A stretch of 64,000 bases of DNA, from IMG/VR virus record IMGVR_UViG_3300045988_083295, positions 1,409-65,408 of that record. The stretch is one strand, 5' to 3'. The DNA comes from a virus. The notes under the pieces are model-generated. The model was given only the letters and a program-made list of their open reading frames with translations. It was not told the origin of the DNA and searched no databases. Position 1 is the first letter of the stretch. Each line of letters begins with the position of its first letter. Positions 9,001 to 61,661 of this stretch are shown one piece after another. Position numbers and translations under genes: made by a program.

Positions 9001-12000
9001 ACGAAATCGCTGATGAGGTGCTTGCCACTTATTCAGGCAGACGTGGTGCTGAACGCTTGCGTGAGGAGCAGCGTAGAATTGCCAAGGGAAATGGCAGTGT
9101 GTTCGAGAAGGCTGAAGCTATCAGTGCTTTGGAACGCGTGAAGCAGGCTCTGAAGAGATTCTGGAAGGGCGTTGCTGATTTCCTGCATATTCACTATACG
9201 AGTGCGGAAGAGGTTGCCGACCGCGTGATGAAGGATTTGCTGGATGGGGTTGATCCGCGTAAGTTTGGTGATGGTGGTAAGTCTCTTGATGCCTACAACA
9301 AAATTCGCAAGCATTTCATCGGTGAGCAGGGTGCGGAGCGTGCCGACCATGCTGAAGAGGTGACAACTCGCATTGACAACCTGAACGTTGCTCGCGAGAT
9401 GGAAGATGCCAAGAAAGATGCCAAGGCTATCAAGATGGCTACCGGTTGGGAACGTGGTGCTGACGGCAAGTGGCGGTATGAGATACCCGACTTGAAGTAT
9501 TTTGGCAAGGGTGATGCTGGTTACAAAAAGGCACGTGGAAAGCAACCTTGGAGCAAGGAACTTGATGGCTTGTCAGACAAGATATTTGATGGTGAAGAAC
9601 TTTCGGAATCAGAATACCGACGTTTTGATGAACTTGCACAAAAGGAAGATGATTTCAAGACAGACTATCTGAATAGAGAAAAACCGCACCTTGCTGATTG
9701 GGTGGAGAATGACGAGTTGTTCAAGGCTTATCCCGACTTGAAGCGTGTGAATGTTGTGTTTACTGACCAACTGCCTACAAATGTGGGTGGCAGTTACAAT
9801 GAGCGTGAGCATACTATTGTTGTCAATACGAATTATGTGGGAGACATAGATTCCGTATTGGCTCATGAGGTTCAGCATGCTATTCAGAAGATTGAGGGTT
9901 TTGCGAGGGGCGGTAATCCAGAATCTATACAAGAACGGTTTAAGGCTGCTAAAAAGGAATGGCGTGCGCGTGCTTGGGCTGATGAATTGCGTTACAAGGC
10001 AGATGAAATGGGCGAACATTACAATCAAGCAGCAGTGGAAAAAGCCTTGATTGATGAGTATAAGGAGATGGGCATGGATGATGATGAATGGATGCCTGAC
10101 AAAGAAACTCGCATGAAGGGCTTTAATTACTTTGCAAGGGGTTATGCAGACAGAAGCATGGATGCTGATATTAAGAATTTCAGGTTGGCTGAATCCACTC
10201 GTGCAGACTTTAATCCTTATATGGAATACACTAAACTTGGTGGTGAAGTAGAAAGCCGTAACGTTGAGAAGCGCATGAAAATGTCCCCAGAGGAGCGAAG
10301 AGCAAGTCTTGCCGCAGAGACAGAGGATGTTTCCAGGGAAGACCAGATATTCTTGTTTGGCGAGGACGGTACTAGCATGAAGACCTCATCTGATTTGAAC
10401 GAAATGTTTGGCAATCGTTGGCTTGACGAGCAGACGAACGATGATGGCCGTCATACCACTCAGGTGAAGAGCACCATCAACTCTTACAAGAAGTTTGGGG
10501 ATTGGGTGAAGCGCGACTCCAATGGCCGTGACGTGGACGTGCTTGATGCGAGCAGTGGATTGGGGCTTGGTACGGCATGGATGAGGGACAATGGGTTCAA
10601 GGTTGATGACGTTGAGCCGTTCCCATCAGACAGTCGTGAAGCACCTACGTTCAGCAGCTATGATGAGATAGACAAGAAGTATGACTATATCATCAGCAAT
10701 GCGGTTCTCAATGTGATCCCTGACGATTGGCGTGCCAATGTGCTTCATCAGATGGCCGACAAACTCAAGGATGGCGGCAAGCTGGTGATTAATGTGCGTG
10801 GAGCGGAGGGTATCCGTAAACAAGGCATTGAGGGCAAGACTCGCACCACACTTGATGATGCTTCCGAGATTCTTGTCCATCGTCCTGACGGCAGCATTAA
10901 ATCCTATCAGAAGGGCTTCACGAAGAGCGAACTGAAGGAATGGTGCGAAAAGGAATTGGGCGAAGGTTATTCGGTTGAAATAGCGAATAACAAGAATGCT
11001 GGCGGTAGCTATGACACTGCGGTTGTGGTGACTAAAAATAACGAAAGCGACATTGAGACTATCAATACGAAATTCAATGAGGAATTGCAGCAGCAGATAG
11101 ACGGCACATTGCCAGAAGGTCACATCTATAAGATGGGCAAGCCTGGGCGCATATTGCTCTCTACTGGCGTACCAAATCTTCCCATACAGATGAATGCGAA
11201 AAGACTCCAAGTCAAGGCTACATTATTTGACCATGATTTTGACCTATCGGAAGTGAAAGATTTAGTGAGAGTCTTGCAGCACCCATTGGCAGTTTTTGCC
11301 TATGGTGACAAGTCGAAGGCGCAGAACATCATTGTTCCGCTGCAAAAAGATGGTAAGAACTTTATCGTTGGACTTTCACTCAATCCCACTGTTGGCGGTC
11401 GCAAGTTGGAAATAAACAGCATAAGAAACGTCTTTCCGAAAGACAATTCAGAATGGCTCAATTGGATAAATCAAGACAAGGCCTTGTATATAGACAAAGA
11501 AAAAATCCAAACCCTCATAGACCAACAGCGAACCAATCTCGCTGACGTGGCCTACTTGGATTTGGACTCTGTTGCAAATGTAATGGAAAATTTTGAAAAT
11601 CCAAAGGTTTCTGACGAAAATGTTGCAGATGGCGGCATTATGTTCCGCAATGGTGGGGCTGCGGATGCTGAAAAGCAGTCTCGCAGAGGAACGCCCAATC
11701 TCTACCCAGACCATATTGCACAAGCTATCTATGAGCAGTCTGTGAGCGGTTTCAAGTTTGACTTGGATGAAGCATGGCATGACTCCTTGCTCAGTGTGAA
11801 ACGTCTTCAGGAGGCCATATCCGAGACTCGCGGTGTGCCTATCAGGGACTTCGAGAACGTCTATTGGCATGCCGTTACCCTCAGCAGTGTGAATGCGGCT
11901 GAGATGGAGCAGTTGATGAATCTTCGTATCCAGCCGTTCATTGAGGCGGTTCAGGATATATGCAAGAAGCATGACCTGACTCAGGAAGACATTGAGGTGT

Positions 12001-14966
12001 ATCTCAACTGCAAGCATGGCTTGGAACGTAACGAAGCGATGGCTCGCAAGTTTGCCGAGGCCAAGGCCGAAGAGGAATTTGAGGCTGAACTCAAGAAAGC
12101 CCAGAAGACTGCAACAGCCAATCCTAACGACCAAGCTGCCCAGCTGGCTCTTTTGGATGTGCAGCTGCGCATGAATGACAGAAAGCACGAACTCTATCTC
12201 AAGAACCGCGAGAAGGATTACTCAGGTCTTACGGATATTTTCGACCCGAAGGATAAGGTCACTGGAGACAGACTGGATCTCACCGTTTCGGAATTGGAAG
12301 ATAAGGCAAAGAAGTGTGTTGATGATTTCGAGGCTAAAGTAGGTGTAGCGGAAGTGACCAAGCTGTGGGACAACATTCATGAACTCAACAACTACTCACT
12401 TCGCAAGTCCTATCTCAGTGGTCTTATCAGCAAGAATCAGTACGACAGCGTGAAACAGATGTACCAGTGGTATGTGCCTCTGCGAGGCTTCAACGAAGAG
12501 GTTGCTGGCGATGTGTACACGTATGTGACAAGAGGCGAGACGAGGACTCAGCAGCTTCTGAAGGAGGCCAAGGGACGTACTTCACGTGCTGGAGATATTC
12601 TTGCCACCATGATGAATATGGCCAATTCTGCCGTGAACCAGGGAAACCGAAATCTCATGAAGCAGAAGATCCTCAATCTCGCGCTTAACGCCAAGAGTCC
12701 TCTGTTGTCTGTGAGCAGTACATGGTATCAGACGGATGCCAACGGATTTGACGTACCCATTGAGCCGCCCATCAACGACCAGATGACTCCTTCAGAGCAG
12801 AAGGATGCCATCGAACAGTGGGAGGATACGATGGAGATGCTGGCCAAGCAGGGCAAGGTTCATCGCATGAGCGACAATCTCAGATTGAATCTCCGCACCC
12901 AGAAATGGCAGGCAGATGAGCATTGTATCCGCGTGCAGCGTGGCGGCAAGGAATATTGCGTATGGGTGAATGGTAATCCACGTGCAGCTCAAGCACTCAA
13001 TGACAGACTTGGGAATCAGGTCACCAAACCGTACAAGGCAACTGAGACTATTCTGGACAAGGCCGAAGACCTCTTCACGGATGGCTTCATAAAGATATTC
13101 AGATATATGGCTCAGAGCGTGACAAGCCTTAACCCCGAATTCGTCATCAGCAACTTCCAGCGAGACCTCGCTTCCGCTTCGCTCATCAGCACGGGCAAGT
13201 ATGGTGCAGGTTACACGAAGGACTTCCTTGTCAACGTGAAACGACTTGGCGTGCTCACAGGAACTATGTCTCACAAGAAGGAATACCGCAACGCAGCAGG
13301 TATCTATACGCTCTACAGCAAGTATAAGTCAGGAAACCTTGACAACAACAACGAGATGGAGCGTTACTTTGCCGAATTCATGGCGAACGGAGGCGAGACC
13401 GGCTACACGCAGTCGCTCAGTATTAAGGACTACCAGTCCCGTATCCAATCAGCACTTGGAGACAAAGGCTTTGTGAAATGGTCAAAGAATGCTGGCCATG
13501 CCGTTGCTGATTTCGTTGAGATGGCCAATAGGGGTGTGGAGAACACCTGCCGATTCGCAGCATACATGACAAGCCGTCAACACGGCAAGAGTGTGCTGCA
13601 ATCCATCGTTGATGCGAAGGAAGCGAGTACGAATTTCAATCTCCATGGCGCAGGAGGATTCGGTAACGCTTGGCTGAGGAAGAGCATTATCTTCATCAAT
13701 CCTGCCGTGCAGAGTATTGTGCAGTATTGCCAACTGACGGCCAAGCACCCGAAGGCCATGCTTTCCATGCTTGGCGGTACCATCGGCCTTGGTGCAGCTA
13801 TGGCATTTGCTTGCGCCAGTATGGTCGCACCGGGTGGCGGTGATCCTGACAGTAATTACTGGGATCTGTCTGATTACGTCCGACACAATTACATTGTGAT
13901 ACCTAGCGGTAATGGGAATTGGACACGTATTGCACTCCCTCCCGAAATCAGAGCCGTGTATGGCCTTGGCGTCATCGCGATGGAGGCCGCGATGGGACGG
14001 ATGAATCATAGCAGCATTCCTGCGGCTATCGGTGATCAGCTTATGCAGTTCTCCCCCGTTGCCTTCCTTGATCCACGCAACTTCTTCAACAGAAGCGACA
14101 GCGATCACCCTGTCGGCAAGACCTTGTTCAGGGCATTTATACCTACGCTCCTTTCACCTCTTGCAGATGCATACGTATTTGACGAGGATTTCATGGGGAG
14201 ACAGATTACGGGCAAGAATGACTTCAATGATGACAAGCCAGAGTTTCAGCGGACAAGCTATGATACCCTTCCGCAGTTGGTATCCTTCTCAAGGTGGCTC
14301 AACAATATCAGTGGCGGCAACGACTACAAGAAGGGCTGGATCAATGTCAATCCATCGTCAGCAGGTTATGTGGCTTCCCAATATATCGGTGGTCCCTTGC
14401 AGTTCTTCACGAAGATAGGCAAGACGGTTGCCATGATTACCTATGAGGACTTGCGCGATATGCGCAATGTGCCGTTCCTGAGCCGATTCATGACATCCAC
14501 AGACAATGACTATGGCCGCAATCAGGTAAGCAATGCAGAATTCAAGTATTGGTCTGCCATTGCAGATGATGTCAGAACTCAAATCAGAGGATTCGAGAAG
14601 GAGATTGAATCTGGCGATACAAAGAATCTTGATGACTACAAGAAACTCGTCAGCAGTAAGGAATACGAGATGTATCAGATGATTGACTATATGGATTGGC
14701 TGAAGGATATCAGGGAACTCAACCAGAAACGCAAGGAAGAGACTACGCAGGATGCCCAGAAGCAGGTTACGCTTGAGATTTATGAGGTTCGTCGCAAGAT
14801 GGCCGAATGTCTCAACAAGGCTGAAGAGATGGGTGTTTATCTGGAGATGGGTCAACTCAACCTTGAATTGGCCAATGCCAAGACCACGGAAGAGAGGGCT
14901 GCCATACAAGCCAAGATCAACGAGAAACGCAAAGAGAATCTAAAGAAAATCGGAGCGATTGAATGA
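12..14966 (+). CDS. Giant polyvalent (multi-effector) virion-type protein, >=4,984 aa, 5' end possibly outside window
   Basis: Single uninterrupted ORF. There is no in-frame stop between nt 3 and the GTG at 12, so the true start may lie upstream. It contains ParB-like, InPase-like, three HExxH, kinase-like, SAM-MTase, MuF_C-like and PLxRFG-like motifs (sub-features below). TGA stop at 14964-14966 is followed by a terminator. Confidence 0.9.
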   Translation: MLRTVKNGDDVMNRVNRQVARATRPNQQKVNLGFNNKHSLLGGGSQVQHEGKKFDAAKGDFVDQYSTEAGNVYDNTYEADAEQYNINRNKRDADTLDMVADIERQIREQEELLEKTRKASRDVKAPDNLWDALRYTMSHADGSRLDQEDIDEEAIKANITNLQNRRSLLLHGTSIGQKVGKSIGDQLAEVNKMINANLDDYYKNHPDGGPKIHDLEYNEIWSIPSNPYLDVAKRSLEDAQEMFNEAGKSVGESGLTGFGKGVIRGFGSKLFDARTWDMGYTDLKGGLSLAEVLKKADEGKPLTVEQQKMLDAKATELACAAYFSGALGRGYKAGQVTAESIPFMLEFMLNPLSGTGRSAQAMLTRYALKRFGRKATMELGEDAAKKILYGDIRQLTKSVFDKGLSKGARRLAAKTLAGKASARIAGDITGAAGMTFTTGQGRVAADMLNRATGQVKFGVDTDGKVKYTGHDAPEESSLLTAYGKAFGSQFSENYSEFMGPYISYVGGMFANGLKKIGGKYLFDGLSSLRNRSAAAVMKLPFAPMVSDFIREATKSDWAKVIKGMQKRAHWDGTAEEYLEEVAGNMLNAILVGDNDFSTEEGRGVFNLSDNIDTFLGVGLMSGAMSVSSAAGYRTPAYRARKMVENADARGEKLMGGSLWGKFRSSFDAAQSEQDKQVILTSLLQNSSLTNEGRRAALQYAIGKQFQQAVADGTFREMEEDAEKGNEVERACRAEYAEGQNIDSVEEMRDAKTRYNVLLREALAVEPNAEIYSDPQFYEQSNPNATPEQKAAMRAYAEAKAQYEGVADRMKTDMADQQQKANEQVDRFKNQTDGLITRVRLRGSDAEFYVTSGHISLNNDGTINDAATSSNLTIVDGEGNERFISRGDVVDVLAQNTPEETLEQLNDIIMNEAKAKADLIDGKLSFRAGDTFTILNNEGQEQKVTIAQDPSTMAMSAVIEGEQAAVPLTEDSMAKLQQMSDAYQESRFGKYRQEQLDAVANAENEATQEGTAPASPTAAQEETGEPTEARSYGYGESVSYVDGEGHTQEGVVHGKTPEGTYEVEFDNPPSGKNVVDEYTQEELDALVQPIPAGQTEEAIPEPTALERVPINEETGEPMFEKADSETALDALNEVTGGNEDNTTAIVRAQVEQATKALEALKKKKPSKKAPSLKGSPLAMVKAQQEAEANYNTAMEEYNAQVAAAEENLNAWSRINSLMNDRKRAIREQQEAERKAREEELHAEAVARLEEDKRIAAEKAAEQEAVGTHAVNPKIKAKWDGATKVEGNPNAITLADGSTIRGHYVLTEAGAATASHDVNNAYEPTEGFPVDENGESVNDRDYKRDRDAQRIVRDMADSYDGRALQSPVIVSKDGVVLSGNNRTMSGEIAARQGTDKAYVAHLREFGAMFGFTPEQIDGMQHPRVVFVPDEELPYDANTFARFNAEQQKKQSKPEHAVKLGKIVPDNVFTSIVGDISRFDRMSDYYADGKAAASAISQLLDAGVINEMQLPELRTGNALSAAGKELIENTLIGKVFQTSPDAVRQIISTPTLRQSVVMGLNEIANNRTLAKSGYDLSKELAAAVDLVSRAKAEAPEIYKEGMPVSPYGRQQGLFDDEYGDSRVTDGVTLLLADLLNSGKPSDLRKVLSTYNHEAASPAAGLMDMFSGDVPSKEDVLNNVLNHFRNATPKEQQAIVDAAIAERKRRAEAAEPGGGSQGGEQTENAVRGSEETSAENLGGNQADGIQEKLTEEEADAMLDRMKSIADPMPEVELTPENWMNTFGLSNKIDTPIGEVKMGESQYAKLMEKKRSKEFGMVVGTITDPDVVFIEPSSAKDGQVTERAYSYVFVKTFKKEDENVRYYSSVTVSIDGMEISVSSHYINSNKAKKKLLELNRRYTKTALISNSSDGRLAEQQDAVPDLLPTQENNAVSDLPFPKDGVSVGEDTANSTELQGNGKESSHKGFVPDEKVIEENVQRSERALGLPSSVKREKTEVKVSDNGKVMVIKTDYSANGSKASVITLLAENDGQLDWAAQSFVDGKPTSELKYDYTLSYDDMMEMFDDNDAIRQDINPLKQIARNAGIDIDALLNGKEHGTKVSIEASREKTSENEGEKTLSAQIEDASADVNTEPTEAQKEAGNYKKGHVHVGSFDITIEQPQGSVRKGTDANGKQWESKMHNTYGYFRGTEGVDGDHIDVFLSNDIDGWNRQTVFVVDQYNPDGSFDEHKVMLGFNNAEEAKRDYLANYEKGWENGRRIDVSAVNLADFEKWIASSHRKTKPFSEYSSVKKEGSSSSETKQSKSTAEEKPFNAVIEMLRKKFPDASMEALTAADRLLREQALPGERQKAIEAVAKALGLKVEWRDTMEKENGTFNPKTRTITIARDSEHALANTFGHEVTHAVRKLSEADYKNLKDAVRRLYPSEKEYNEAVQAYGEVYTDLDFDALEEELIADNIGFMIGGRNDMTQELASRMNHRVLWAIHDAMNKVRNALAKVLHIDSKKNGLLEAIDSARATIRETMANAQRIAKEKGQGLSNESDSTKQSLRTQDTTIRDALVERMRLSGMDVITDETGQRVLDMANGRDTRFEAARHKSEAARRRDEMLRAIDQAKAFISGKTEQQTRAERRERERKFREETKVLYDRVLAGNFDSVTLQLLDDFINKVTPNNYYGRPLSKRLSERTLRKVYERERTSSVDALFSRISESAVPADERTRPEAKRRIEEKKKELLKGWAIATGNWHTAVSDFTDDTKPIGSGKDSVVYHSKDGKSVIKVSKGKESARKFRPDMDNVALFNTVFPASKYEIIGYGEIDGKFVRFLRQPIVDFTDSTPLSVEERVAYMERLGFRPMNDEKTAFTNGEIVASDIQGNNIVKDRDGNIRVIDADMRFHTKEFGGKYSYPAVETDTETAPNIREQRVYHGNGANDVRFFRTANGKAYGFTVGGKIYIDPRIATSETPVHEYAHLWATALKSANAKEWQNVVGLMKGTKVWDEVKALYPELKSDDEIADEVLATYSGRRGAERLREEQRRIAKGNGSVFEKAEAISALERVKQALKRFWKGVADFLHIHYTSAEEVADRVMKDLLDGVDPRKFGDGGKSLDAYNKIRKHFIGEQGAERADHAEEVTTRIDNLNVAREMEDAKKDAKAIKMATGWERGADGKWRYEIPDLKYFGKGDAGYKKARGKQPWSKELDGLSDKIFDGEELSESEYRRFDELAQKEDDFKTDYLNREKPHLADWVENDELFKAYPDLKRVNVVFTDQLPTNVGGSYNEREHTIVVNTNYVGDIDSVLAHEVQHAIQKIEGFARGGNPESIQERFKAAKKEWRARAWADELRYKADEMGEHYNQAAVEKALIDEYKEMGMDDDEWMPDKETRMKGFNYFARGYADRSMDADIKNFRLAESTRADFNPYMEYTKLGGEVESRNVEKRMKMSPEERRASLAAETEDVSREDQIFLFGEDGTSMKTSSDLNEMFGNRWLDEQTNDDGRHTTQVKSTINSYKKFGDWVKRDSNGRDVDVLDASSGLGLGTAWMRDNGFKVDDVEPFPSDSREAPTFSSYDEIDKKYDYIISNAVLNVIPDDWRANVLHQMADKLKDGGKLVINVRGAEGIRKQGIEGKTRTTLDDASEILVHRPDGSIKSYQKGFTKSELKEWCEKELGEGYSVEIANNKNAGGSYDTAVVVTKNNESDIETINTKFNEELQQQIDGTLPEGHIYKMGKPGRILLSTGVPNLPIQMNAKRLQVKATLFDHDFDLSEVKDLVRVLQHPLAVFAYGDKSKAQNIIVPLQKDGKNFIVGLSLNPTVGGRKLEINSIRNVFPKDNSEWLNWINQDKALYIDKEKIQTLIDQQRTNLADVAYLDLDSVANVMENFENPKVSDENVADGGIMFRNGGAADAEKQSRRGTPNLYPDHIAQAIYEQSVSGFKFDLDEAWHDSLLSVKRLQEAISETRGVPIRDFENVYWHAVTLSSVNAAEMEQLMNLRIQPFIEAVQDICKKHDLTQEDIEVYLNCKHGLERNEAMARKFAEAKAEEEFEAELKKAQKTATANPNDQAAQLALLDVQLRMNDRKHELYLKNREKDYSGLTDIFDPKDKVTGDRLDLTVSELEDKAKKCVDDFEAKVGVAEVTKLWDNIHELNNYSLRKSYLSGLISKNQYDSVKQMYQWYVPLRGFNEEVAGDVYTYVTRGETRTQQLLKEAKGRTSRAGDILATMMNMANSAVNQGNRNLMKQKILNLALNAKSPLLSVSSTWYQTDANGFDVPIEPPINDQMTPSEQKDAIEQWEDTMEMLAKQGKVHRMSDNLRLNLRTQKWQADEHCIRVQRGGKEYCVWVNGNPRAAQALNDRLGNQVTKPYKATETILDKAEDLFTDGFIKIFRYMAQSVTSLNPEFVISNFQRDLASASLISTGKYGAGYTKDFLVNVKRLGVLTGTMSHKKEYRNAAGIYTLYSKYKSGNLDNNNEMERYFAEFMANGGETGYTQSLSIKDYQSRIQSALGDKGFVKWSKNAGHAVADFVEMANRGVENTCRFAAYMTSRQHGKSVLQSIVDAKEASTNFNLHGAGGFGNAWLRKSIIFINPAVQSIVQYCQLTAKHPKAMLSMLGGTIGLGAAMAFACASMVAPGGGDPDSNYWDLSDYVRHNYIVIPSGNGNWTRIALPPEIRAVYGLGVIAMEAAMGRMNHSSIPAAIGDQLMQFSPVAFLDPRNFFNRSDSDHPVGKTLFRAFIPTLLSPLADAYVFDEDFMGRQITGKNDFNDDKPEFQRTSYDTLPQLVSFSRWLNNISGGNDYKKGWINVNPSSAGYVASQYIGGPLQFFTKIGKTVAMITYEDLRDMRNVPFLSRFMTSTDNDYGRNQVSNAEFKYWSAIADDVRTQIRGFEKEIESGDTKNLDDYKKLVSSKEYEMYQMIDYMDWLKDIRELNQKRKEETTQDAQKQVTLEIYEVRRKMAECLNKAEEMGVYLEMGQLNLELANAKTTEERAAIQAKINEKRKENLKKIGAIE
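3876..4215 (+). other. ParB/sulfiredoxin-like nuclease-fold module of the giant protein
   Basis: VIVSKDGVVLSGNNRTMSGEIA (nt 4107-4172) fits the ParB N-terminal DGxxxxxGxxR signature. Domain borders are approximate. Confidence 0.6.
6411..6809 (+). other. InPase-like (polyvalent-protein inorganic pyrophosphatase-like) module
   Basis: AGNYKKGHVHVGSFDITIEQPQGSVRKG...YGYFRGTEGVDGDHIDVFLS resembles, from memory, the InPase block described for polyvalent proteins. Confidence 0.55.
7056..7440 (+). other. Zincin metallopeptidase module 1 (MPTase-PolyVal/ArdC-like)
   Basis: HEVTH at nt 7179-7193, preceded by TRTITIARDSEHALANTFG, typical of polyvalent-protein zincins. Confidence 0.6.
8253..8648 (+). 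other. Protein-kinase-like fold module
   Basis: Glycine-rich loop plus Lys (GSGKDSVVYHSKDGKSVIKVSKG), then a catalytic-loop/DFG-like segment IQGNNIVKDRDGNIRVIDAD. Confidence 0.5.
8739..8900 (+). other. Zincin metallopeptidase module 2
   Basis: HEYAH at nt 8865-8879, preceded by GGKIYIDPRIATSETPV. Confidence 0.5.
9750..9915 (+). other. Zincin metallopeptidase module 3
   Basis: HEVQH at nt 9864-9878 in the context EREHTIVVNTNYVGDIDSVLAHEVQHAIQKIEGFARGGN. Confidence 0.5.
10440..11030 (+). other. Class I SAM-dependent methyltransferase module
   Basis: Motif I VLDASSGLGLG (nt 10539-10571), an acidic residue after beta-2 (FKVDDVEP), and a later YDYIISNAVLNVIP...GGKLVINV block. Confidence 0.6.
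11109..11510 (+). other. MuF_C-like / large-polyvalent-protein-associated module
   Basis: LPEGHIYKMGKPGRILLSTGVPNLPIQMNAKRL...HPLAVFAYGD...NFIVGLSLNP...EINSIRNVFPKD matches the conserved MuF C-terminal-type block as I remember it. Confidence 0.5.
12471..12494 (+). other. PLxRFG-like motif (YVPLRGFN)
   Basis: Motif seen in the translated sequence. Assignment to the PLxRFG domain family is from memory only. Confidence 0.35.
13690..13850 (+). other. Hydrophobic/transmembrane-like helices in the C-terminal part of the giant protein
   Basis: IIFINPAVQSIVQYCQL and LSMLGGTIGLGAAMAFACASMVAPGGG are long apolar, Gly/Ala-rich stretches. Confidence 0.5.
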
Positions 14967-15062: not shown

Positions 15063-15647
15063 ATGGACAATAAAAACGAAGATACGAGCATATTGCGTAA
15101 TATCGCTTATGTGATGCAGATTATACTCTTCATAATCTGCATTGCTTACACATATCGCAACTATCGCCTTCATTCGGGTACGGATGATGTATCCTTACGT
15201 GTGGATACCCTATATGTTACGCGAACGGAACGAGTGGGTTCGCCAACAGTACGCGATAGTGTTGTGCTCAGATTCAAAACAATCCCTGTCGTGAACGAAG
15301 CGATGCGTCCAGACACAGCCATGACCGATACAGCCTCCGATGTTGTTGGAATAGAGGCTTCACGTGATAGCGTGAATATTCCCATCGTTCAGCACGTCTA
15401 TGCAGATACGCTGCACAATGGAATATCGTATCAGGCTTGGGTGAGCGGATACGATGCGAGTCTTGACTCCATCTGTATCAATTCGCGCACACAGACCCTT
15501 ACCAGGGAAATGCGCATACGCTCTCCCACTGATGAAGCTCATTCGAAGACAAGGAGATTCGGATTGGGCATTGTTGGCGGATGGGGAATAACACAGCATG
15601 GTTTCTCGCCATTCTTGGGGGTTGGCGTGACATATAGACTATATTGA
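15063..15647 (+). CDS. Hypothetical membrane-anchored protein
   Basis: ORF track. N-terminal hydrophobic helix IILFIICIAYTY. An alternative in-frame ATG at 15106 fits the promoter spacing better. Confidence 0.6.
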   Translation: MDNKNEDTSILRNIAYVMQIILFIICIAYTYRNYRLHSGTDDVSLRVDTLYVTRTERVGSPTVRDSVVLRFKTIPVVNEAMRPDTAMTDTASDVVGIEASRDSVNIPIVQHVYADTLHNGISYQAWVSGYDASLDSICINSRTQTLTREMRIRSPTDEAHSKTRRFGLGIVGGWGITQHGFSPFLGVGVTYRLY

Positions 15648-29454: not shown

Positions 29455-29493
29455 GCAGCACCCTGCATCCCCTTGTGGGGTGCTGCCCTTTTC
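29455..29493 (+). terminator. Terminator after the tail fibre gene
   Basis: 9-bp stem GCAGCACCC / GGGTGCTGC, followed by CCTTTTC. Confidence 0.6.
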
Positions 29494-29513
29494 AAACAAA
29501 CAATAAACTACAC

Positions 29514-30410
29514 ATGAGAAAGACAAGGTGCTCCATCGTCATTACAGCATACAATGTTGACCGCTACATCAAGCAGTGCGTAGACAGCGCGCTGAATCAG
29601 ACAGAACCTTGCGAGGTTATCGTTGTGGCCGACTGTCCTACTGACAATACAAAGGATATTCTTGCTTCGTATGGCAAGAAAATCAAATTGGTGAATCACT
29701 TATGCAACCAAGGCGCCGGCCAATCACGTAGGGATGGCATCAGCCATGCTACGTCAGAGTTTGTTCTTCTTCTGGACGGAGATGATTACATTGACAGAGA
29801 CTTTGTAAAGCAATTGGTAGCCAAGGCTGACAAGACGGGTGCCGACATTGTCAGTGGCGGTATCCGCATATTGAACGAAGATGGTTCATGGAATGCGACC
29901 TCTTACGGAGAGTGCATCACGGAAGGCCGCGACAAGGTGACCAAATTCTGGGGCGAGAGAATTGTCTTCATGAATAACAAAATAATCAAAAGATCCCTTT
30001 ACGAAACCGTTCCCTACTGCAATAGGCGATACATTGAGGATACGCCCACGATAATTCCTATCATGTTCTATGCGAACAAGGTTGCTTACGTGGACAATAT
30101 CGGATACACGTATCGCATGAATCCCCAATCGCTCACCCACACTTCGAACCTCATGAAAGACTTGATCTACAAGGGGCTGTGTTGGCTTGATATGGTGGAT
30201 TTCTTTAACGAGCATGACAAGGGTATGTTCGAGGCCATTGATATCATTGGCTATCTCCGTAACATTATCGGTACGCTCAACAAGGTGCATATCACGGATA
30301 CAATGATTGTTCCCTACAAGAAACAATGGGATGAATTCATTCTTCGATTGATGAATTGCATTGAGATTACCAATGTGAATATTATTGATGGGGTAAAGGG
30401 GTGTAACTGA
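29514..30410 (+). CDS. Family 2 (GT-A) glycosyltransferase
   Basis: CSIVITAYNVDRYIKQCVDSALNQT N-terminal GT2 signature and a DxD (LLLDGDDYI). ATG at 29514 is preferred over the GTG at 29475, which lies in the terminator. Confidence 0.8.
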   Translation: MRKTRCSIVITAYNVDRYIKQCVDSALNQTEPCEVIVVADCPTDNTKDILASYGKKIKLVNHLCNQGAGQSRRDGISHATSEFVLLLDGDDYIDRDFVKQLVAKADKTGADIVSGGIRILNEDGSWNATSYGECITEGRDKVTKFWGERIVFMNNKIIKRSLYETVPYCNRRYIEDTPTIIPIMFYANKVAYVDNIGYTYRMNPQSLTHTSNLMKDLIYKGLCWLDMVDFFNEHDKGMFEAIDIIGYLRNIIGTLNKVHITDTMIVPYKKQWDEFILRLMNCIEITNVNIIDGVKGCN

Positions 30411-30455: not shown

Positions 30456-31379
30456 ATGGCAAACGTATCATGGAGCAGCCTTGAAGGGAACTTTTTTCGC
30501 ATAGATGTTGGCACAAGCAAGGCCAGCGCGCTTACCGTAACGGACAATACCATTCTGCATATCTGCACGGATGGCGCAATCGTGATGAATGGAGAGACCA
30601 TTGCCGAACGCAATGCAGACCTTTCTGGTTATATGCAGAAGTCGGGCGGTACGTTTACGGGTAACGTGAATGTTGGTTCTACTTCCACCAACCGAAATAT
30701 GTATGTTTATGGCCTAACGAGTTTGCAGGGGAATGTGACAATCGGTAACGCGACCACGAACAAGACTCTCAAGGTCTACGGCAAGGCCAGCACCACGAGT
30801 GATTTGACAGTTGGCGGTTCGTTGGCTGTCACCTCAGATAGGATCACCCTGAAGAACAATGGTTACTCAGTCTATCTGTATAAGCCCACAGACGAATACT
30901 TCTACCTCTTGATGTCCAACAAGAACGGATCGACATGGAACGACCTTCGACCGTTGACCATCAACATGACCAACGGATGGATGTCGCTTGCAAGTGGTGC
31001 GATGACATTGGTCAACAACGGCGATGTGAAAGTGGCCAATACCCTGACGGCAACCAAATTGGTTCAGACCAGCACCTCAGACCTTCGTGCCAAGGAAAAT
31101 CTCAATGCAGACTTTGACGCGTTGGCGAAGTTGCGCGAGTTGGGCGATGTGTATGAATTCGACTACAAGGCTGACGGCAAGCATAGCTATGGCCTTATTG
31201 CCCAGAATGTGGAACAGTCGGAGTTGAAGGATATGGTTGGCTATGTTGATAAGGATGATCCTGATTCGCTTCGGTATGTCAATTATCTTGACCCTAGAAT
31301 TACGGCACTTCTTATCAAGAGTGTCAGGCAGTTGCAGGATGAGGTGACCAAACTTCGTTCTGAGCGATTAAAAGAATGA
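30456..31379 (+). CDS. Tail fibre/spike with C-terminal S74 intramolecular chaperone domain
   Basis: SDLRAKENL...YEFDYKADGKHSYGLIAQNVEQ... matches the peptidase S74 auto-cleaving chaperone signature. Confidence 0.8.
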   Translation: MANVSWSSLEGNFFRIDVGTSKASALTVTDNTILHICTDGAIVMNGETIAERNADLSGYMQKSGGTFTGNVNVGSTSTNRNMYVYGLTSLQGNVTIGNATTNKTLKVYGKASTTSDLTVGGSLAVTSDRITLKNNGYSVYLYKPTDEYFYLLMSNKNGSTWNDLRPLTINMTNGWMSLASGAMTLVNNGDVKVANTLTATKLVQTSTSDLRAKENLNADFDALAKLRELGDVYEFDYKADGKHSYGLIAQNVEQSELKDMVGYVDKDDPDSLRYVNYLDPRITALLIKSVRQLQDEVTKLRSERLKE

Positions 31380-31383
31380 TACG

Positions 31384-31917
31384 ATGATTAATGTAACAAC
31401 AAGCGGTGGCAACATGGCTGTCAATGCAGGTGCGGCTGTTGGTGTTGGCGTGTTCTACGAGGAGATGTTGCAGGTGTTCTTTGACCTGCGATGGGCGGTG
31501 GCTTTCATCGGTATCCTTGTTCTCACGGATTTTTGGCTCGGTCTGACCGCCAGTGTTCGTGTACGTGGGGAGGACTTCCGCTTCAGTAGGGCATTGCGAA
31601 GAACAACAACCAAGTTCTTGGAGTATGTCTGCTACATCGTGTTCGGTGTATTGCTAGTCAAGGCTTGCATTGAGCCATTCGGTATTGGCAGTGATCTCAT
31701 GGGTGGCGCGATTGGCGCAAGCGTGGGCTTCATTGCTGAGTTTGACAGCATATATGGACACTTCTGTGACCTGCATGGAATCAAGAGGCGTATATCCCTG
31801 AAGCGCATCTTTGTGGCATGGCTCAAGCAGAAGAACGAAGGTGTCGGTGAGGCCGTAGAGCAGGCATTAAATGAATCTGAAAAAGAAGCAGGAAATGAAA
31901 CGAATAGCAACACATAA
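31384..31917 (+). CDS. Holin candidate
   Basis: 177 aa with three hydrophobic helices and a charged C-terminal tail. First gene of the lysis cassette. Confidence 0.5.
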   Translation: MINVTTSGGNMAVNAGAAVGVGVFYEEMLQVFFDLRWAVAFIGILVLTDFWLGLTASVRVRGEDFRFSRALRRTTTKFLEYVCYIVFGVLLVKACIEPFGIGSDLMGGAIGASVGFIAEFDSIYGHFCDLHGIKRRISLKRIFVAWLKQKNEGVGEAVEQALNESEKEAGNETNSNT

Positions 31918-32440
31918 CAGTGTGACGGGGGAGAAGGGCAAGGGATTGCTCTCCTTCCTTGTTGCTCCATTTTCCAAGTGTCAGAGCAAGACTTTGGAAG
32001 AGCAGTATGATGCAGGATGCCGATTCTTCGACATTCGTACATGGTTGCGACCTGATGGTATATGGGTGTGCGGCCATGGAATGTGGACGGCTAAGATTAC
32101 GCTATCCGATGTGCTGGATTTCTTCTTGAAGCATGAGGATGCCTATTTCAGTATTACCATTGAGAAGGGTGAACTGGATGAGTATGCCAACCAGCTGCTA
32201 TACGATTTCGGATTCATCAATGGATGTCATCTTCGATATCAACTGGCGTACATTGCGGTCAAGAAGCCTCAGTGGCGTATTGTGAAGAGCTTTTACGATA
32301 TGAATATCGCTGAGGGTTATAAGAATCTTGATGGAAGGTCTTGGCACACTTACCTTCCTATTCCTTGGCTATGGAAGAAGATCTACTACAACAAGCCGGT
32401 ATTCCTTAACAGCATATACGTGATGGTTGACTTCCTCTAA
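31895..32440 (+). CDS. PI-PLC X-domain-like phosphodiesterase
   Basis: ATHNS (His7), FFDIR (Arg48) and CGHG (His61), with the His-Arg-His order and spacing of bacterial PI-PLC catalytic residues. The start overlaps the holin 3' end. Confidence 0.55.
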   Translation: MKRIATHNSVTGEKGKGLLSFLVAPFSKCQSKTLEEQYDAGCRFFDIRTWLRPDGIWVCGHGMWTAKITLSDVLDFFLKHEDAYFSITIEKGELDEYANQLLYDFGFINGCHLRYQLAYIAVKKPQWRIVKSFYDMNIAEGYKNLDGRSWHTYLPIPWLWKKIYYNKPVFLNSIYVMVDFL

Positions 32441-32456
32441 TAATACTATATAACTT

Positions 32457-33026
32457 ATGGCAAACTTCAATACTTACGCCCAGTTTCTGCAATCGTGGGA
32501 AGGTGGGTATGTTAATGACAAGGATGACAGCGGTGGCGCAACGATGTGTGGTGTGACCATCGCTGCGTGGACTAGCTATTGCCGTCAGCATGGCATGCGC
32601 GCCACGACGCAGACTCTTCGCTCCATGACCAAGGAACAGTGGGGTGAGATCATGAAGAACGGATATTGGGATGCCGTGTGGGGTGACCATATCCACAGTC
32701 TGAGCATTGCTTCGATGATGGCCGATTGGGCCATCAATTCAGGACCCAAGAGGGTTGTCAAGTATGTTCAGCGGATTCTTCCCGGTATCTCTGTTGACGG
32801 GATCATGGGTCCGAAGACCTTGAACCGAATCAACGCGATGAAGCCTTCTGTGTTGTTTGCCGAGATTCGCAAGGCAAGGCTTAACTACTACGCCGGCCTT
32901 GCCGAGAAGGATGAGCGCAAGAAGAAATATCTGGAAGGATGGAACAATCGCGTGAATGCGATGCAGTTTGGTGTGCTTGTGTGCAACGACAAGAAGCACA
33001 CCAAGATTACTTGGAGCGAATCATAA
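32457..33026 (+). CDS. Endolysin, GH108 muramidase with PG_binding_3 domain
   Basis: WEGGYVNDKDDSGGATMCGVT (GH108 signature with catalytic Glu) and VDGIMGPKTLNRIN (peptidoglycan-binding motif). Confidence 0.85.
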   Translation: MANFNTYAQFLQSWEGGYVNDKDDSGGATMCGVTIAAWTSYCRQHGMRATTQTLRSMTKEQWGEIMKNGYWDAVWGDHIHSLSIASMMADWAINSGPKRVVKYVQRILPGISVDGIMGPKTLNRINAMKPSVLFAEIRKARLNYYAGLAEKDERKKKYLEGWNNRVNAMQFGVLVCNDKKHTKITWSES

Positions 33027-45706: not shown

Positions 45707-45780
45707 GGGACTTTAGCTCAGACGGTCAGAGCAGCTGACTCATAATCAGAAGGTCGCGAGTTCAAGCCTCGCAGGTCCCA
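45707..45780 (+). tRNA. tRNA-Met (or Ile-lysidine type), anticodon CAT
   Basis: Hand-folded 74-nt cloverleaf: GGGACTT/AGGTCCC acceptor, GCTC/GAGC D-stem, loop CTCATAA (CAT at 45741-45743), T-arm GCGAG-TTCAAGC-CTCGC. Confidence 0.85.
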
Positions 45781-45836
45781 CCGCTTTTGGAGTTCTTGTT
45801 AAGGTGTTTTTGTGGCAGCCCGGAAAGACGGGCACG

Positions 45837-45908
45837 GACTGAATAGCTCAACGGACAGAGCATCCCCCTCCTAAGGGGAAGATGAGGGTTCGATTCCCCC
45901 TTCAGTCA
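45837..45908 (+). tRNA. tRNA-Arg, anticodon CCT
   Basis: Hand-folded 72-nt cloverleaf: GACTGAA/TTCAGTC acceptor, TCCCC-CTCCTAA-GGGGA anticodon arm (CCT at 45870-45872), T-arm with one A-C mismatch. Confidence 0.75.
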
Positions 45909-45951
45909 CTATGAGATTTTCAACATTACTAATCGAATAAGACGAAGAATC

Positions 45952-61427: not shown

Positions 61428-61661
61428 ATGTGGTTAAAAGAAAGCAATAGACCTAAACACTTTGTTTACGCCATCCCGGCAGCATTTGTAGGAACTATCC
61501 TATTTGCTGCCGGGCTGGCAGTGGGCATGGAGTTCAAGGATAAGCAGTATGGTGGTGACTTCGACTGGCTCGACATCGCTGCAACGATTATTGGTGGACT
61601 TGTCGGACAGATATTGCAAGTGATGGCGATTTGGTCCATCCATTTTCTATTCTTAGAGTAA
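61428..61661 (+). CDS. Small membrane protein (2 TM)
   Basis: ORF track. Helices AIPAAFVGTILFAAGLAVG and IAATIIGGLVGQILQVMAIW. Confidence 0.55.
   Translation: MWLKESNRPKHFVYAIPAAFVGTILFAAGLAVGMEFKDKQYGGDFDWLDIAATIIGGLVGQILQVMAIWSIHFLFLE

Follow-up and report, generated by a model that had tools for sequence, protein, structure and literature searches.

[quoted passage not shown] The phage is probably of a gut Bacteroidota type. The only matches to its capsid-like protein come from three Bacteroides phages, at about 25% identity. Membership in Crassvirales was considered and dropped: although a crAss001_48-like gene and a gene for a giant polyvalent protein are present, the portal is P22-like and the capsid-like protein has just these Bacteroides phage matches. 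A megablast search of GenBank phages with 20 kb around the PLC gene yielded no near-identical genome.

Table 1. Coordinates of the genes and PLC sequence elements in the window.
Feature	Position	Strand	Description
DUF6808 protein	15063..15647	+	N-terminal TM segment, Gly/aromatic C-terminus; Pfam DUF6808, E 8e-24
GT2 glycosyltransferase	29475-30410	+	Upstream context
Tail fibre with Peptidase_S74 chaperone domain	30456-31379	+	Upstream context
Holin-like membrane protein	31384..31917	+	177 aa; at least two predicted TM segments (hydropathy); distant Phage_holin_4_1 relative
Mini PI-PLC gene	31895..32440	+	181 aa; predicted stand-alone phosphodiesterase without signal peptide
His7 codon	31913..31915	+	Predicted general base (B. 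cereus His32); invariant in 45 sequences; hhalign
Asp46-Ile47-Arg48 codons	32030..32038	+	Asp46 and Arg48 correspond to B. cereus Asp67 and Arg69; HMMER and hhalign
His61 codon	32075..32077	+	Predicted general acid (B. cereus His82); invariant; HMMER and hhalign
Signature block W150-H-T-Y-L-P-I-P-W-L-W-K-K162	32342..32380	+	Aromatic/basic, family-wide
Asp179 codon	32429..32431	+	Motif VMVDFL; candidate equivalent of Asp274 (B. cereus VIQDYI); invariant
Endolysin, GH108 and PG_binding_3	32457..33026	+	Pfam E 3e-21 and 1.4e-15; PHROG 315 'endolysin', E 3e-44

The holin-like, PLC and endolysin ORFs are all encoded on the same strand, and the order of the glycosyltransferase, the tail fibre and the cassette is the same in the related lineages L007–L009. 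As the first-pass annotation stated, the PLC ORF overlaps the 3′ end of the holin-like gene; the overlap is 23 nt, and the His7 codon overlaps the holin stop codon (TAA, 31915–31917). Close adjacency of the PLC and GH108 genes was also reported correctly, with a spacer of 16 nt instead of 17 nt. The upstream gene is assigned as a holin on the strength of Phage_holin_4_1 matches that are weak but recur in 11 of 12 homologues (best E 7e-4); the copy in the window matches neither this family nor any entry of NCBIfam or PHROGs. Similar genes adjoin the PLC gene in L029, L073 and L040; an hhalign comparison with the L029 holin was not significant. With a Phage_holin_4_1-type gene upstream and the endolysin downstream, the proposed location of the PLC inside the lysis cassette stands. 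Neither a signal nor an SAR sequence was found in the GH108 endolysin. Since the counts of predicted promoters and terminators at 27–38 kb equalled those in shuffled sequence, with a sigma-70 model unsuited to Bacteroidota, no separate transcription unit can be defined.

The start of the PLC gene was placed at 31895 because the family alignment favours it over an alternative in-frame ATG at 31871, which would give a 189-aa product. The N-terminus of the protein is MKRIATHNS; there is no signal peptide, the catalytic His being located already at residue 7. In most family members the start codon lies 4–7 residues ahead of this His, and a signal peptide was found in none of them.

The PI-PLC-like fold and catalytic residues suggested by the first-pass annotation are supported by several lines of evidence. 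Pfam PI-PLC-X (PF00388) matches residues 26–76 of the PLC with 27.9 bits, above the gathering cut-off of 23.1 (E 2.1e-6), and a precomputed match to it is present in only part of the homologues. A profile built from 45 family sequences matched the PI-PLC structures of S. aureus, Listeria and B. cereus in the PDB (E 4e-7 to 5e-5), the PDB matches being confined to PI-PLCs. Using hhalign, the PLC was aligned to B. cereus PI-PLC with a probability of 93.6% (E 2e-7), H7, N8, D46, R48, H61 and E90 being paired with H32, D33, D67, R69, H82 and E117, respectively; the RFFDIR stretch of the PLC lines up with RFFDIR in S. aureus Plc and with RIFDIR in the B. cereus enzyme. The family alignment has 22 invariant columns among the 45 sequences, including the catalytic set and D179. 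Because the Pfam match above cut-off, the profile matches to the PDB, the hhalign result and the invariant residues agree, the resemblance to PI-PLC is not due to chance. A chance ORF or a pseudo-enzyme was ruled out, given these invariant columns with the whole catalytic set and the more than 500 homologous clusters at E ≤ 1e-10. NCBIfam gave no match to the PLC, PHROGs gave just one weak match of unknown function, and no GDPD family of Pfam or NCBIfam was matched.

The AF2 model of the PLC has a pLDDT of 90 and a pTM of 0.86. Bacterial PI-PLCs were the top Foldseek matches with a probability of 1.0, the Bacillus PI-PLC mutant structures 2or2 and 3ea1 among the matches; GDPDs formed a second tier below them (E 2e-3 or worse), and GDPD-containing phage tail proteins, among them the phi812 central spike (9eul), were also returned. 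The TMq values against PI-PLC structures are 0.5–0.56, with low-rmsd alignments of about 117–146 columns and high rmsd on the long ones; good superposition is limited to some 120 residues. Bacterial PI-PLC folds into a distorted (beta/alpha)8 barrel with a length of about 300 residues, of which the 181-aa PLC would be a cut-down version. As far as sequence and model can tell, the gene product is a half-sized yet intact-looking PI-PLC-like enzyme.

The catalytic motifs had been read correctly, with His7 in ATHNS, Arg48 in FFDIR and His61 in CGHG, and a step of 13 residues separates Arg48 from His61, as it does Arg69 from His82 in the B. cereus enzyme. Neither Asp46 nor Arg48 varies among the 45 aligned homologues. 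By its aligned position, Arg48 marks the metal-independent bacterial type of PI-PLC; it would sit where metal-dependent enzymes bind the cation. In B. cereus PI-PLC, Asp274 partners His32, and inositol is bound by Lys115, Arg163 and Asp198. In the PLC, Asp179 comes after the last predicted strand of the AF2 model (E175–178), and K123 and D146 show no or almost no variation across the 45 sequences. A global hhalign alignment of the C-terminal half with B. cereus PI-PLC was forced and unreliable, and the pairing of D179 with Asp274 is absent from the sequence alignments. Because this half resists alignment, we infer, rather than align, the equivalence of D179 to Asp274, K123 to Arg163 and D146 to Asp198.

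The signature block contains four residues invariant in the 45 sequences (W150, P155, P157 and W158) and five conserved in at least 90% of them (H151, I156, L159, W160 and K162). It is proposed to be a membrane-interface or substrate-binding element because its placement just ahead of the last strand resembles that of two features of Bacillus PI-PLC, the Trp242 rim loop and the Tyr strip.

Judged by sequence comparison, the PLC is a member of an undescribed family of stand-alone mini PI-PLCs of about 180 aa. This family comprises 553 clusters at E ≤ 1e-10, mostly from gut phage contigs; homologue clusters numbered 324 in one database and 2127 in another. The top 150 representatives consist of a bare catalytic domain of 175–195 aa, with no fibre, adaptor or trimerisation segment. 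A protein search found the gene only in the uncultured phages cr85_1 and cr118_1, where it is annotated as 'hypothetical'. Some distant members are encoded on contigs binned to Clostridia; to our knowledge, Clostridia are not known to synthesise inositol lipids. L052 and L053, contigs of 'Mogibacterium' and Bacteroidaceae MAGs, are probably phage contigs placed in bins and give no evidence on the host. No description of a PI-PLC-type phage lysis enzyme was found in the papers searched.

Linkage to lysis genes was counted in 31 diverged PLC lineages, with 70% identity as the clustering level. In seven of them the PLC gene directly adjoins an endolysin gene, and an endolysin lies within three genes in nine and within five genes in 12; the indicative binomial P for the seven adjacencies is 2e-6 to 2e-4. 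Five endolysin families are involved: GH108, Amidase_3 and GH24 adjoin the PLC gene, and Amidase_2 and M15_3 lie within five genes. The gene order holin–PLC–GH108 is found in the window, L011, L007–L009 and L052; holin–PLC–Amidase_3–u-spanin-like in L029; PLC–Amidase_3 in L041; Amidase_3–PLC, with GT2 just upstream of the pair, in L071 and L072; and PLC–holin–x–GH24–DUF6808 in L073. Looser arrangements are PLC...holin–Amidase_3 (L040), PLC...M15_3 (L028) and PLC–2TM...Amidase_2 (L027). The expected synteny with lysis genes in relatives thus holds in part: it recurs across lineages whose PLCs are 35–59% identical to one another, but it is not universal, as about 19 of the 31 have no recognised endolysin within five genes. 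The PLC gene is part of early-type replication or recombination modules in L070 and L075, and it lies beside a giant polyvalent protein in L069 and beside a tRNA array in the cr85_1 group. In four phages with TAG-to-Gln recoding, the PLC gene contains 2–6 in-frame TAGs, as do the neighbouring tail-fibre and endolysin genes; recoding of this kind is a mark of genes for late structural and lysis proteins (PMC10136315).

The first-pass annotation saw no spanin-like pair in the cassette and suggested that the PLC could act as the outer-membrane disruptor. A stand-in role for a missing spanin is not supported in this form, since u-spanin-like or DUF6808 genes share the cassette with the PLC in relatives, and the window itself encodes a DUF6808 protein. 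In L029, a u-spanin-like gene with a lipobox and a C-terminal TM segment comes right after the endolysin, and in L054 a u-spanin-like gene lies directly upstream of the PLC; because of this co-occurrence, the PLC is not a spanin substitute in these phages. Homologues of DUF6808 directly follow the endolysin in L007 and L008 (GH108) and in L073 (GH24). The window's own DUF6808 protein, whose gene lies outside the cassette, is a candidate for a lysis partner that spans the envelope. Like spanins (lambda Rz/Rz1; T1 gp11 u-spanin), the PLC has a cassette position and a proposed outer-membrane step. The end result of spanin action is membrane fusion or rupture (PMC6139136), possibly shared with the PLC. 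Spanins, however, are periplasm-spanning fusogens, whereas the PLC is a predicted enzyme in which no TM segment, lipobox or coiled coil was found.

The preferred reading, tentative and at slightly under an even chance, is that the PLC is a holin-released accessory lysis enzyme cleaving the phosphoinositol lipids (phosphatidylinositol and inositol phosphoceramide) of Bacteroidota envelopes. Its compartment, timing, substrate and effect on lysis would then be as follows. The PLC gene would be transcribed together with the late lysis genes, and the protein would be made in the cytoplasm as a compact metal-independent phosphodiesterase of the bacterial PI-PLC type. Since neither the PLC nor the adjacent endolysin has a signal peptide, its release would need the holin, and access to the envelope would be gained only once the inner membrane is opened. 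Catalysis would rely on a His/His acid–base pair and Arg, the hydroxyl next to the phosphate attacking to form a cyclic phosphate. In this way, phosphoinositol head groups would be stripped off phosphatidylinositol and inositol phosphoceramide. The outer membrane would be weakened, or membrane fusion and rupture favoured, because the diacylglycerol or ceramide left over forms no stable bilayers. The PLC would act alongside spanin-like proteins, not instead of them. Points against this reading are the C-terminal half that resists alignment, the limited structural superposition, the many lineages without a recognised endolysin nearby and the distant members binned to Clostridia. It is doubtful, though conceivable, that mini PI-PLCs as a whole represent a new class of phage lysis proteins, namely holin-released phosphodiesterases whose products, ceramide and diacylglycerol, drive outer-membrane rupture or fusion of the inner and outer membranes.

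Cargo genes commonly insert in lysis cassettes and at tail-fibre ends, so adjacency alone does not establish function. The PLC may instead be a cargo or host-remodelling enzyme that works on inositol lipids or other lipid-linked sugar-phosphates within the cell during infection or lysogeny, an explanation considered unlikely. The outcome would be a change in the composition of the capsule or surface, serving, for example, to exclude superinfecting phages, to destroy receptors or decoy vesicles, or to bring about lysogenic conversion. The PLC gene tends to sit in the variable region ending the tail-fibre/lysis module, and its context varies, including replication modules; a GtrB-like GT2 glycosyltransferase repeatedly co-occurs with it (window, L007–L009, L071 and L072), and the carrier L073 is temperate, with an integrase. 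Lacking a signal peptide, the PLC could be active in the cytoplasm as soon as it is made, and the spanin-like genes of the same cassettes mean that a dedicated outer-membrane disruptor may already exist. In B. thetaiotaomicron, expression of capsule loci shifts on loss of inositol synthesis (PMC9246714). A cargo role is harder to reconcile with the direct endolysin adjacency, which involves three families, several orders and deeply diverged lineages and exceeds simple expectation, with the wedging of the window PLC between holin and endolysin in overlapping or near-abutting ORFs, and with the fact that in recoded phages the PLC gene is recoded in the manner of late genes.

It is improbable that the PLC is a virion or tail-fibre enzyme cleaving a phosphodiester-linked polymer or lipid of the host surface at entry, in analogy to the GDPD domains on Gram-positive phage tails. 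In L003, L010, L027, L040, L053 and L044, the PLC gene comes immediately after a very large tail-fibre-like gene or overlaps its end, and Foldseek returned the tail GDPD proteins mentioned above; these matches are weak (E ≥ 1e-2), however, the PLC gene lies away from tail genes in many lineages, and the representatives are devoid of fibre-type segments. It is very improbable that the PLC is a soluble phosphodiesterase with a non-lipid substrate (such as a signalling nucleotide or another cyclic or polyol phosphate) and an anti-defence or metabolic role: in the recombination module of L070 the PLC overlaps a metallo-beta-lactamase-fold gene with a faint match to Anti-Pycsar Apyc1, and the family occurs in early-type modules of some phages, but the Apyc1 match is far under threshold (19 bits vs 50), all sequence and fold matches of the PLC are lipid or glycerophosphodiester enzymes, conservation is strongest, apart from the active site, in a Trp/Pro/Lys-rich motif of a kind seen at membrane interfaces, and we know of no nucleotide-acting enzyme of the PI-PLC fold.

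Among known systems, the PLC shares its superfamily and the order and spacing of catalytic residues with the bacterial PI-PLCs of PF00388 (B. cereus/thuringiensis PI-PLC, S. aureus Plc and L. monocytogenes PlcA), which cleave phosphatidylinositol or GPI to diacylglycerol and inositol 1,2-cyclic phosphate. Those enzymes are secreted virulence factors of about 300 aa, whereas the PLC is phage-encoded, linked to lysis genes and about 60% of their size, and it lacks a signal peptide; the signature SWHTYLPIPWLWKK replaces their membrane-binding elements, namely helix B, the rim loop and the Tyr strip. Multi-domain PI-PLC-X proteins of Prevotellaceae and Muribaculaceae (L057–L068), which belong to the presumed host phylum, are about 30–34% identical to the PLC over its N-terminal 90–100 residues, including the catalytic motifs. 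They are chromosomally encoded, whereas the PLC is phage-borne, and they have 385–1696 aa, Big_2, ricin-lectin or FG-GAP domains and signal- or lipoprotein-like N-termini. GDPD domains, including those of Gram-positive phage tails, where they cut teichoic acids, have the PLC-like phosphodiesterase superfold in common with the phage protein; tail GDPDs are fused to tail proteins, whereas the PLC stands alone and has Arg48 at the cation position.

The mycobacteriophage mycolyl-arabinogalactan esterase LysB, to which the PLC had been likened, follows the same logic as the model proposed here, being a soluble lipid-directed enzyme encoded in a cassette beside endolysin and holin. LysB adds a further lysis step directed at the outer lipid layer, and efficient lysis requires it (PMC5707550). 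It is an alpha/beta-hydrolase carboxylesterase with a Ser nucleophile (GXSXG), unrelated in fold and chemistry to the PLC, a predicted TIM-barrel-type phosphodiesterase, all matches of which are of the PI-PLC/GDPD type. The function of LysB at the mycomembrane has been demonstrated, whereas that of the PLC at the Bacteroidota outer membrane is inferred.

Among the Gram-negative bacteria of the human gut, Bacteroidota dominate, and little is known of how their phages pass the outer membrane. In a survey of 677 phages, 91 had no spanin, including Bacteroides phage B124-14, and the question of an alternative route was raised (PMC6139136). Bacteroidota are also unusual among bacteria in that they make inositol phospholipids and sphingolipids, in which outer-membrane material is rich (PMC9246714, PMC8791184). 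A widespread family of phage proteins with an intact-looking PI-PLC active site, repeatedly found in lysis cassettes, links the question of Bacteroidota lysis with these inositol lipids. If the PLC remodels host lipids during infection instead, it would represent a new kind of phage auxiliary function. If the lysis role is correct, a lipid-head-group phosphodiesterase would join the phage lysis proteins next to the LysB esterases, and the last step of lysis would be an enzymatic one adapted to the unusual lipids that gut Bacteroidota possess, offering a handle on how phages without a recognisable spanin escape from these hosts. In that case, the very small PI-PLC scaffold might also serve as a tool or an antibacterial adjunct against Bacteroidota.

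The gene for the PI-PLC-like phosphodiesterase (PLC) of the window is the middle one of three tightly packed ORFs, all on the + strand. The TAA stop codon of the upstream ORF (31915–31917) overlaps the PLC His7 codon, so the two ORFs have 23 nt in common; a 16-nt spacer separates the PLC ORF from the endolysin ATG. A PLC start at the in-frame ATG 31871 would lengthen the protein by eight residues; nearly all homologues start 4–7 residues ahead of the His, which counts against it. The motifs ATHNS (His7), FFDIR (Asp46, Arg48) and CGHG (His61) are found precisely as described in the first-pass annotation, which had also placed the gene between a holin and an endolysin; this embedding is borne out. 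The endolysin matches Pfam GH108 and PG_binding_3 (E 3e-21 and 1.4e-15) and PHROG ‘endolysin’ (E 3e-44). The window copy of the upstream protein itself has no family match; 11 of 12 homologues have weak Phage_holin_4_1 matches (best E 7e-4), and equivalent cassettes in three PLC-carrying loci (L029, L073 and L040) contain stronger ones (E 1e-4 to 1.4e-3), at or slightly under the Pfam cut-off. As these matches are weak but consistent among homologues and equivalent cassettes, the label ‘holin’ is reasonable, though not proven.

Coordinates of features in the window and in loci carrying PLC relatives (L-handles; coordinates are those of each locus)
Locus	Feature	Position	Remarks
Window	Giant polyvalent protein	12–14966 (+)	At least 4984 aa; open at 5′ end
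Window	DUF6808	15063–15647 (+)	Pfam E 8e-24; directly after polyvalent gene
Window	GtrB-like GT2	29475–30410 (+)	
Window	Holin-like ORF	31384–31917 (+)	177 aa; at least two hydrophobic segments
Window	PLC	31895–32440 (+)	181 aa; N-terminus MKRIATHNS
Window	Endolysin	32457–33026 (+)	189 aa; GH108 and PG_binding_3
Window	tRNAs	45707–45909 (+)	Met (CAT), Arg (CCT)
Window	Three-TM protein	61428–61661 (+)	77 aa; next to dUTPase
L001	HELGH protein of most abundant lineage	1083–1484	
L002 (cr118_1)	Three-TM protein relative	2969–3211	Directly upstream of PLC
L003	PLC, recoded	6001–6528	
L003	DUF7841	11607–12008	
L007	GtrB-like GT2	2300–3214	
L007	DUF6808	6648–7127	
L010	PLC, recoded	5001–5525	
L028	PLC, recoded	5998–6522	
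L028	DUF7841	7143–7544	
L029	u-spanin-like protein	7461–8036	191 aa; right after endolysin
L040	Three-TM protein relative	6537–6782	Directly after PLC
L041	PLC, recoded	5995–6582	
L054	u-spanin-like protein	5528–5953	141 aa; immediately upstream of PLC
L054	DUF7841	8824–9297	
L064	Chromosomal PI-PLC-X	3552–4709	
L068	Chromosomal PI-PLC-X	5887–8730	
L070	Metallo-beta-lactamase fold	8525–9241	Overlaps PLC gene end
L071	GtrB-like GT2	6291–7178	
L072	GtrB-like GT2	3870–4757	
L073	DUF6808	7594–8178	

The PI-PLC observation is real and the fold call correct. The protein matches Pfam PI-PLC-X at 27.9 bits (E 2.1e-6; gathering cut-off 23.1). Against PDB, the single sequence gave weak matches, to PI-PLCs only, and a 45-sequence family profile retrieved S. 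aureus Plc (E 4e-7), Listeria PlcA (1e-6) and B. cereus PI-PLC (5e-5), with practically no match outside PI-PLCs. An hhalign comparison with B. cereus PI-PLC (probability 93.6%, E 2e-7; reference checked as identical to the 1PTD/1GYM sequence) paired H7, N8, D46, R48, H61 and E90 with His32, Asp33, Asp67, Arg69, His82 and Glu117, respectively. No variation occurs among the 45 sequences at H7, D46, R48, H61, E90, K123, W150, W158 and D179. AlphaFold2, run on the family alignment, produced a confident compact alpha/beta model (pLDDT 90.1, pTM 0.86), for which every top PDB fold match was a PI-PLC from bacteria (E 3e-4, probability 1.0, TMq about 0.55), with GDPDs as a second tier; low-rmsd superposition spans only about 120–145 columns. 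The best viral fold match is an uncharacterised cr128_1 protein. A PI-PLC-type active site is apparently intact, and the invariant Arg, where eukaryotic PLCs and GDPDs have a cation, points to the bacterial, metal-independent mechanism, which requires a hydroxyl adjacent to the phosphodiester, as in inositol phosphates. Sequence methods gave no alignment of the C-terminal half with B. cereus PI-PLC; D179 (VMVDFL, past the last strand) is a candidate equivalent of Asp274 (VIQDYI), and the roles of the Trp242 rim loop and of the Tyr strip may be taken by the invariant SWHTYLPIPWLWKK block.

The family comprises 324 homologue clusters in one database; a profile search of 1.84 billion representatives returned 2127 proteins at E<=1e-3, 553 at E<=1e-10 and 131 at E<=1e-30. 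The best 150 representatives are practically all stand-alone proteins of about 170–200 aa, and in the sources searched no member has a name more specific than ‘hypothetical protein’. Only two GenBank phage records carry the gene, those of the uncultured crAss-like phages cr85_1 and cr118_1, both as ‘hypothetical’. Full-length matches in bacterial genomes lie mostly on phage-like contigs inside MAG bins; the matches on Prevotellaceae and Muribaculaceae chromosomes are to long PI-PLC-X proteins of several domains, which have the N-terminal half alone in common with the phage enzymes. Such genes in Prevotellaceae, Muribaculaceae and Porphyromonadaceae (L057–L068) encode 385–1696 aa proteins fused to Big_2, ricin-lectin or FG-GAP domains. 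Judged from these sequences, the three families encode inositol-lipid-type phosphodiesterases of their own, from which the phage mini-enzymes may derive. With the catalytic His already at residue 5–8, the short PLC proteins all lack a signal peptide.

For the neighbourhood comparison, 41 PLC loci were taken from viral contigs, ORFs were called in all loci (TAG read as Gln for four recoded phages), lysis genes were flagged by Pfam and iterative searches, and the PLC proteins were clustered at 70% identity into 31 lineages. The order holin–PLC–GH108 is found in the window, L011, L007–L009 and L052; other orders are holin–PLC–Amidase_3–u-spanin-like (L029), PLC–Amidase_3 (L041), small ORFs–Amidase_3–PLC (L071, L072) and tail fibre–PLC–holin–47 aa–GH24 lysozyme–DUF6808 (L073, temperate). 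Looser arrangements are PLC–3TM protein...holin–Amidase_3 (L040), PLC...M15_3 (L028), PLC–2TM protein...Amidase_2 (L027) and 3TM protein–PLC...DUF5675 (cr118_1). The synteny with lysis genes expected from the first reading was thus found in part: an endolysin directly adjoins the PLC gene in 7 of the 31 lineages and lies within three genes in nine and within five in 12, and some lineages have other contexts. Assuming one endolysin per 50–100 genes, the binomial tail for seven adjacencies is 2e-4 to 2e-6, a figure that is indicative only because the lineages have common ancestry and endolysin detection is partial. The lysis-linked PLCs are mutually only 35–59% identical and interleaved with PLCs from non-lysis contexts, so the linkage was kept or re-formed across endolysin families and gene orders.

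Three contexts point the other way. In cr85_1-like phages, the PLC gene lies next to a tRNA array and precedes the gene for a 133-aa membrane protein with an HExxH motif; L069-type phages have the order Band_7–PLC–217–344–giant polyvalent protein; in L070 and L075, the gene lies amid RecT, NinB and RusA genes. The lineage of L001 and the cr85_1-like loci L005, L006, L020, L023–L026, L039 and L045 is the most abundant (clusters with 471 and 964 members); here the end of the PLC gene invariably overlaps by 4 nt the gene for a 133–140-aa protein with one TM segment, a HELGH zincin-like motif and no family match. The metallo-beta-lactamase-fold protein of L070, in the RecT/RusA module, has a faint Anti-Pycsar Apyc1 match. 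DUF7841 genes recur a few kb from PLC, also in L070, L071, L073 and L075; one gene separates DUF7841 from the M15_3 endolysin in L028, and in L003 it is just upstream of an endolysin of this type. In several diverged phages, a GtrB-like GT2 glycosyltransferase gene lies within the region of the tail fibres, shortly before the lysis/PLC cassette, which hints at phage-directed modification of surface glycans.

The PLC genes of the four recoded phages contain 2–6 in-frame TAGs each; these fall at the family-invariant Gln30 in all four and Gln37 in three, confirming the recoding. Nearby tail-fibre and endolysin genes are similarly recoded, and such recoding has been reported as a mark of late genes for structure and lysis (PMC10136315).

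The window cassette holds no spanin pair, as had been noted at first; the 107-aa ORF 3′ of the endolysin, conserved in L009 and L011, is without TM segment or lipobox. The proposal that the enzyme substitutes for spanins is weakened by its relatives. Proteins of the L029 and L054 cassettes have a lipobox (LCSC and VCSC, respectively; both Bacteroidota-type phages) and a C-terminal TM segment, the topology of the T1 gp11 u-spanin (PMC6139136), and faint Rz-like matches at most in Pfam and PHROGs. DUF6808 proteins, with an N-terminal TM segment and a Gly/aromatic C-terminus of conserved pattern GGxGIT..G..P(F/Y)(L/I)G(V/F)G(V/I).(Y/W).L, are encoded directly after the endolysin in the unrelated cassettes of L007/L008 (GH108) and L073 (GH24), and may represent a lysis protein of Bacteroidota phages that spans the envelope and has so far escaped recognition. 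Since u-spanin-like and DUF6808 genes occur in relatives, and DUF6808 in the window, the mini PI-PLC seems to assist other envelope-disrupting proteins rather than replace them. The 77-aa three-TM protein of the window, encoded 29 kb from the cassette, is 58% identical to its cr118_1 relative and may be another protein of the holin or antiholin kind.

The carrier is a Bacteroidota-type phage with a P22-like portal, a crAss001_48-like gene and a capsid-type protein whose relatives are Bacteroides phages only; given this portal and capsid-type protein, placement in Crassvirales was not adopted. Its polyvalent protein combines InPase, Kinase-PolyVal, MuF_C, LPD14/23/38, methyltransferase, SprT-like and ddrB-ParB domains; in L069, a 5474-aa counterpart is encoded three genes 3′ of PLC.

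The reading favoured here, still tentatively, is that the mini PI-PLC is a holin-released accessory lysis enzyme acting on PI and inositol phosphoceramide; it has no export signal, and late and lysis linkage recurs in many lineages. The enzyme would build up in the cytoplasm alongside the endolysin, exit via holin lesions and turn PI into diacylglycerol and inositol phosphoceramide into ceramide; with these charged head groups gone, the outer membrane might be destabilised or fusion favoured. Diacylglycerol made by PLC promotes fusion of vesicles. Inositol lipids occur widely among host-associated Bacteroidetes, a Prevotella-type pathway included (PMC9246714), and inositol phosphoceramide ranks with the most abundant sphingolipids of B. 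thetaiotaomicron outer-membrane vesicles (PMC8791184). Set against this late and lysis linkage, the main rival, a cargo gene that remodels the host envelope and is merely placed in the variable tail-fibre/lysis end, seems rather unlikely, even with a repeated GT2 neighbour, early-module contexts and one temperate carrier in its favour. Less likely than either are a virion-borne enzyme for entry, which is improbable, and a phosphodiesterase for a non-lipid substrate or anti-defence, slightly more so. A lysis role is plausible, neither universal nor demonstrated, and its support is now stronger than a first reading of the bare sequence could have given.

In the literature searched, PI-PLC-like proteins are described neither for phage lysis nor for crAss-like or Bacteroides phages, and nothing relevant on crAss lysis genes came up. 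The superfamily of the mini PI-PLC enzyme is known; its subfamily, a minimal one, is new. LysB, a soluble lipid-directed lysis-cassette enzyme, can be required for efficient lysis (PMC5707550); as a component of the lysis cassette, the mini PI-PLC would be a new variant of the same idea, differing from LysB in chemistry and in the type of host envelope.
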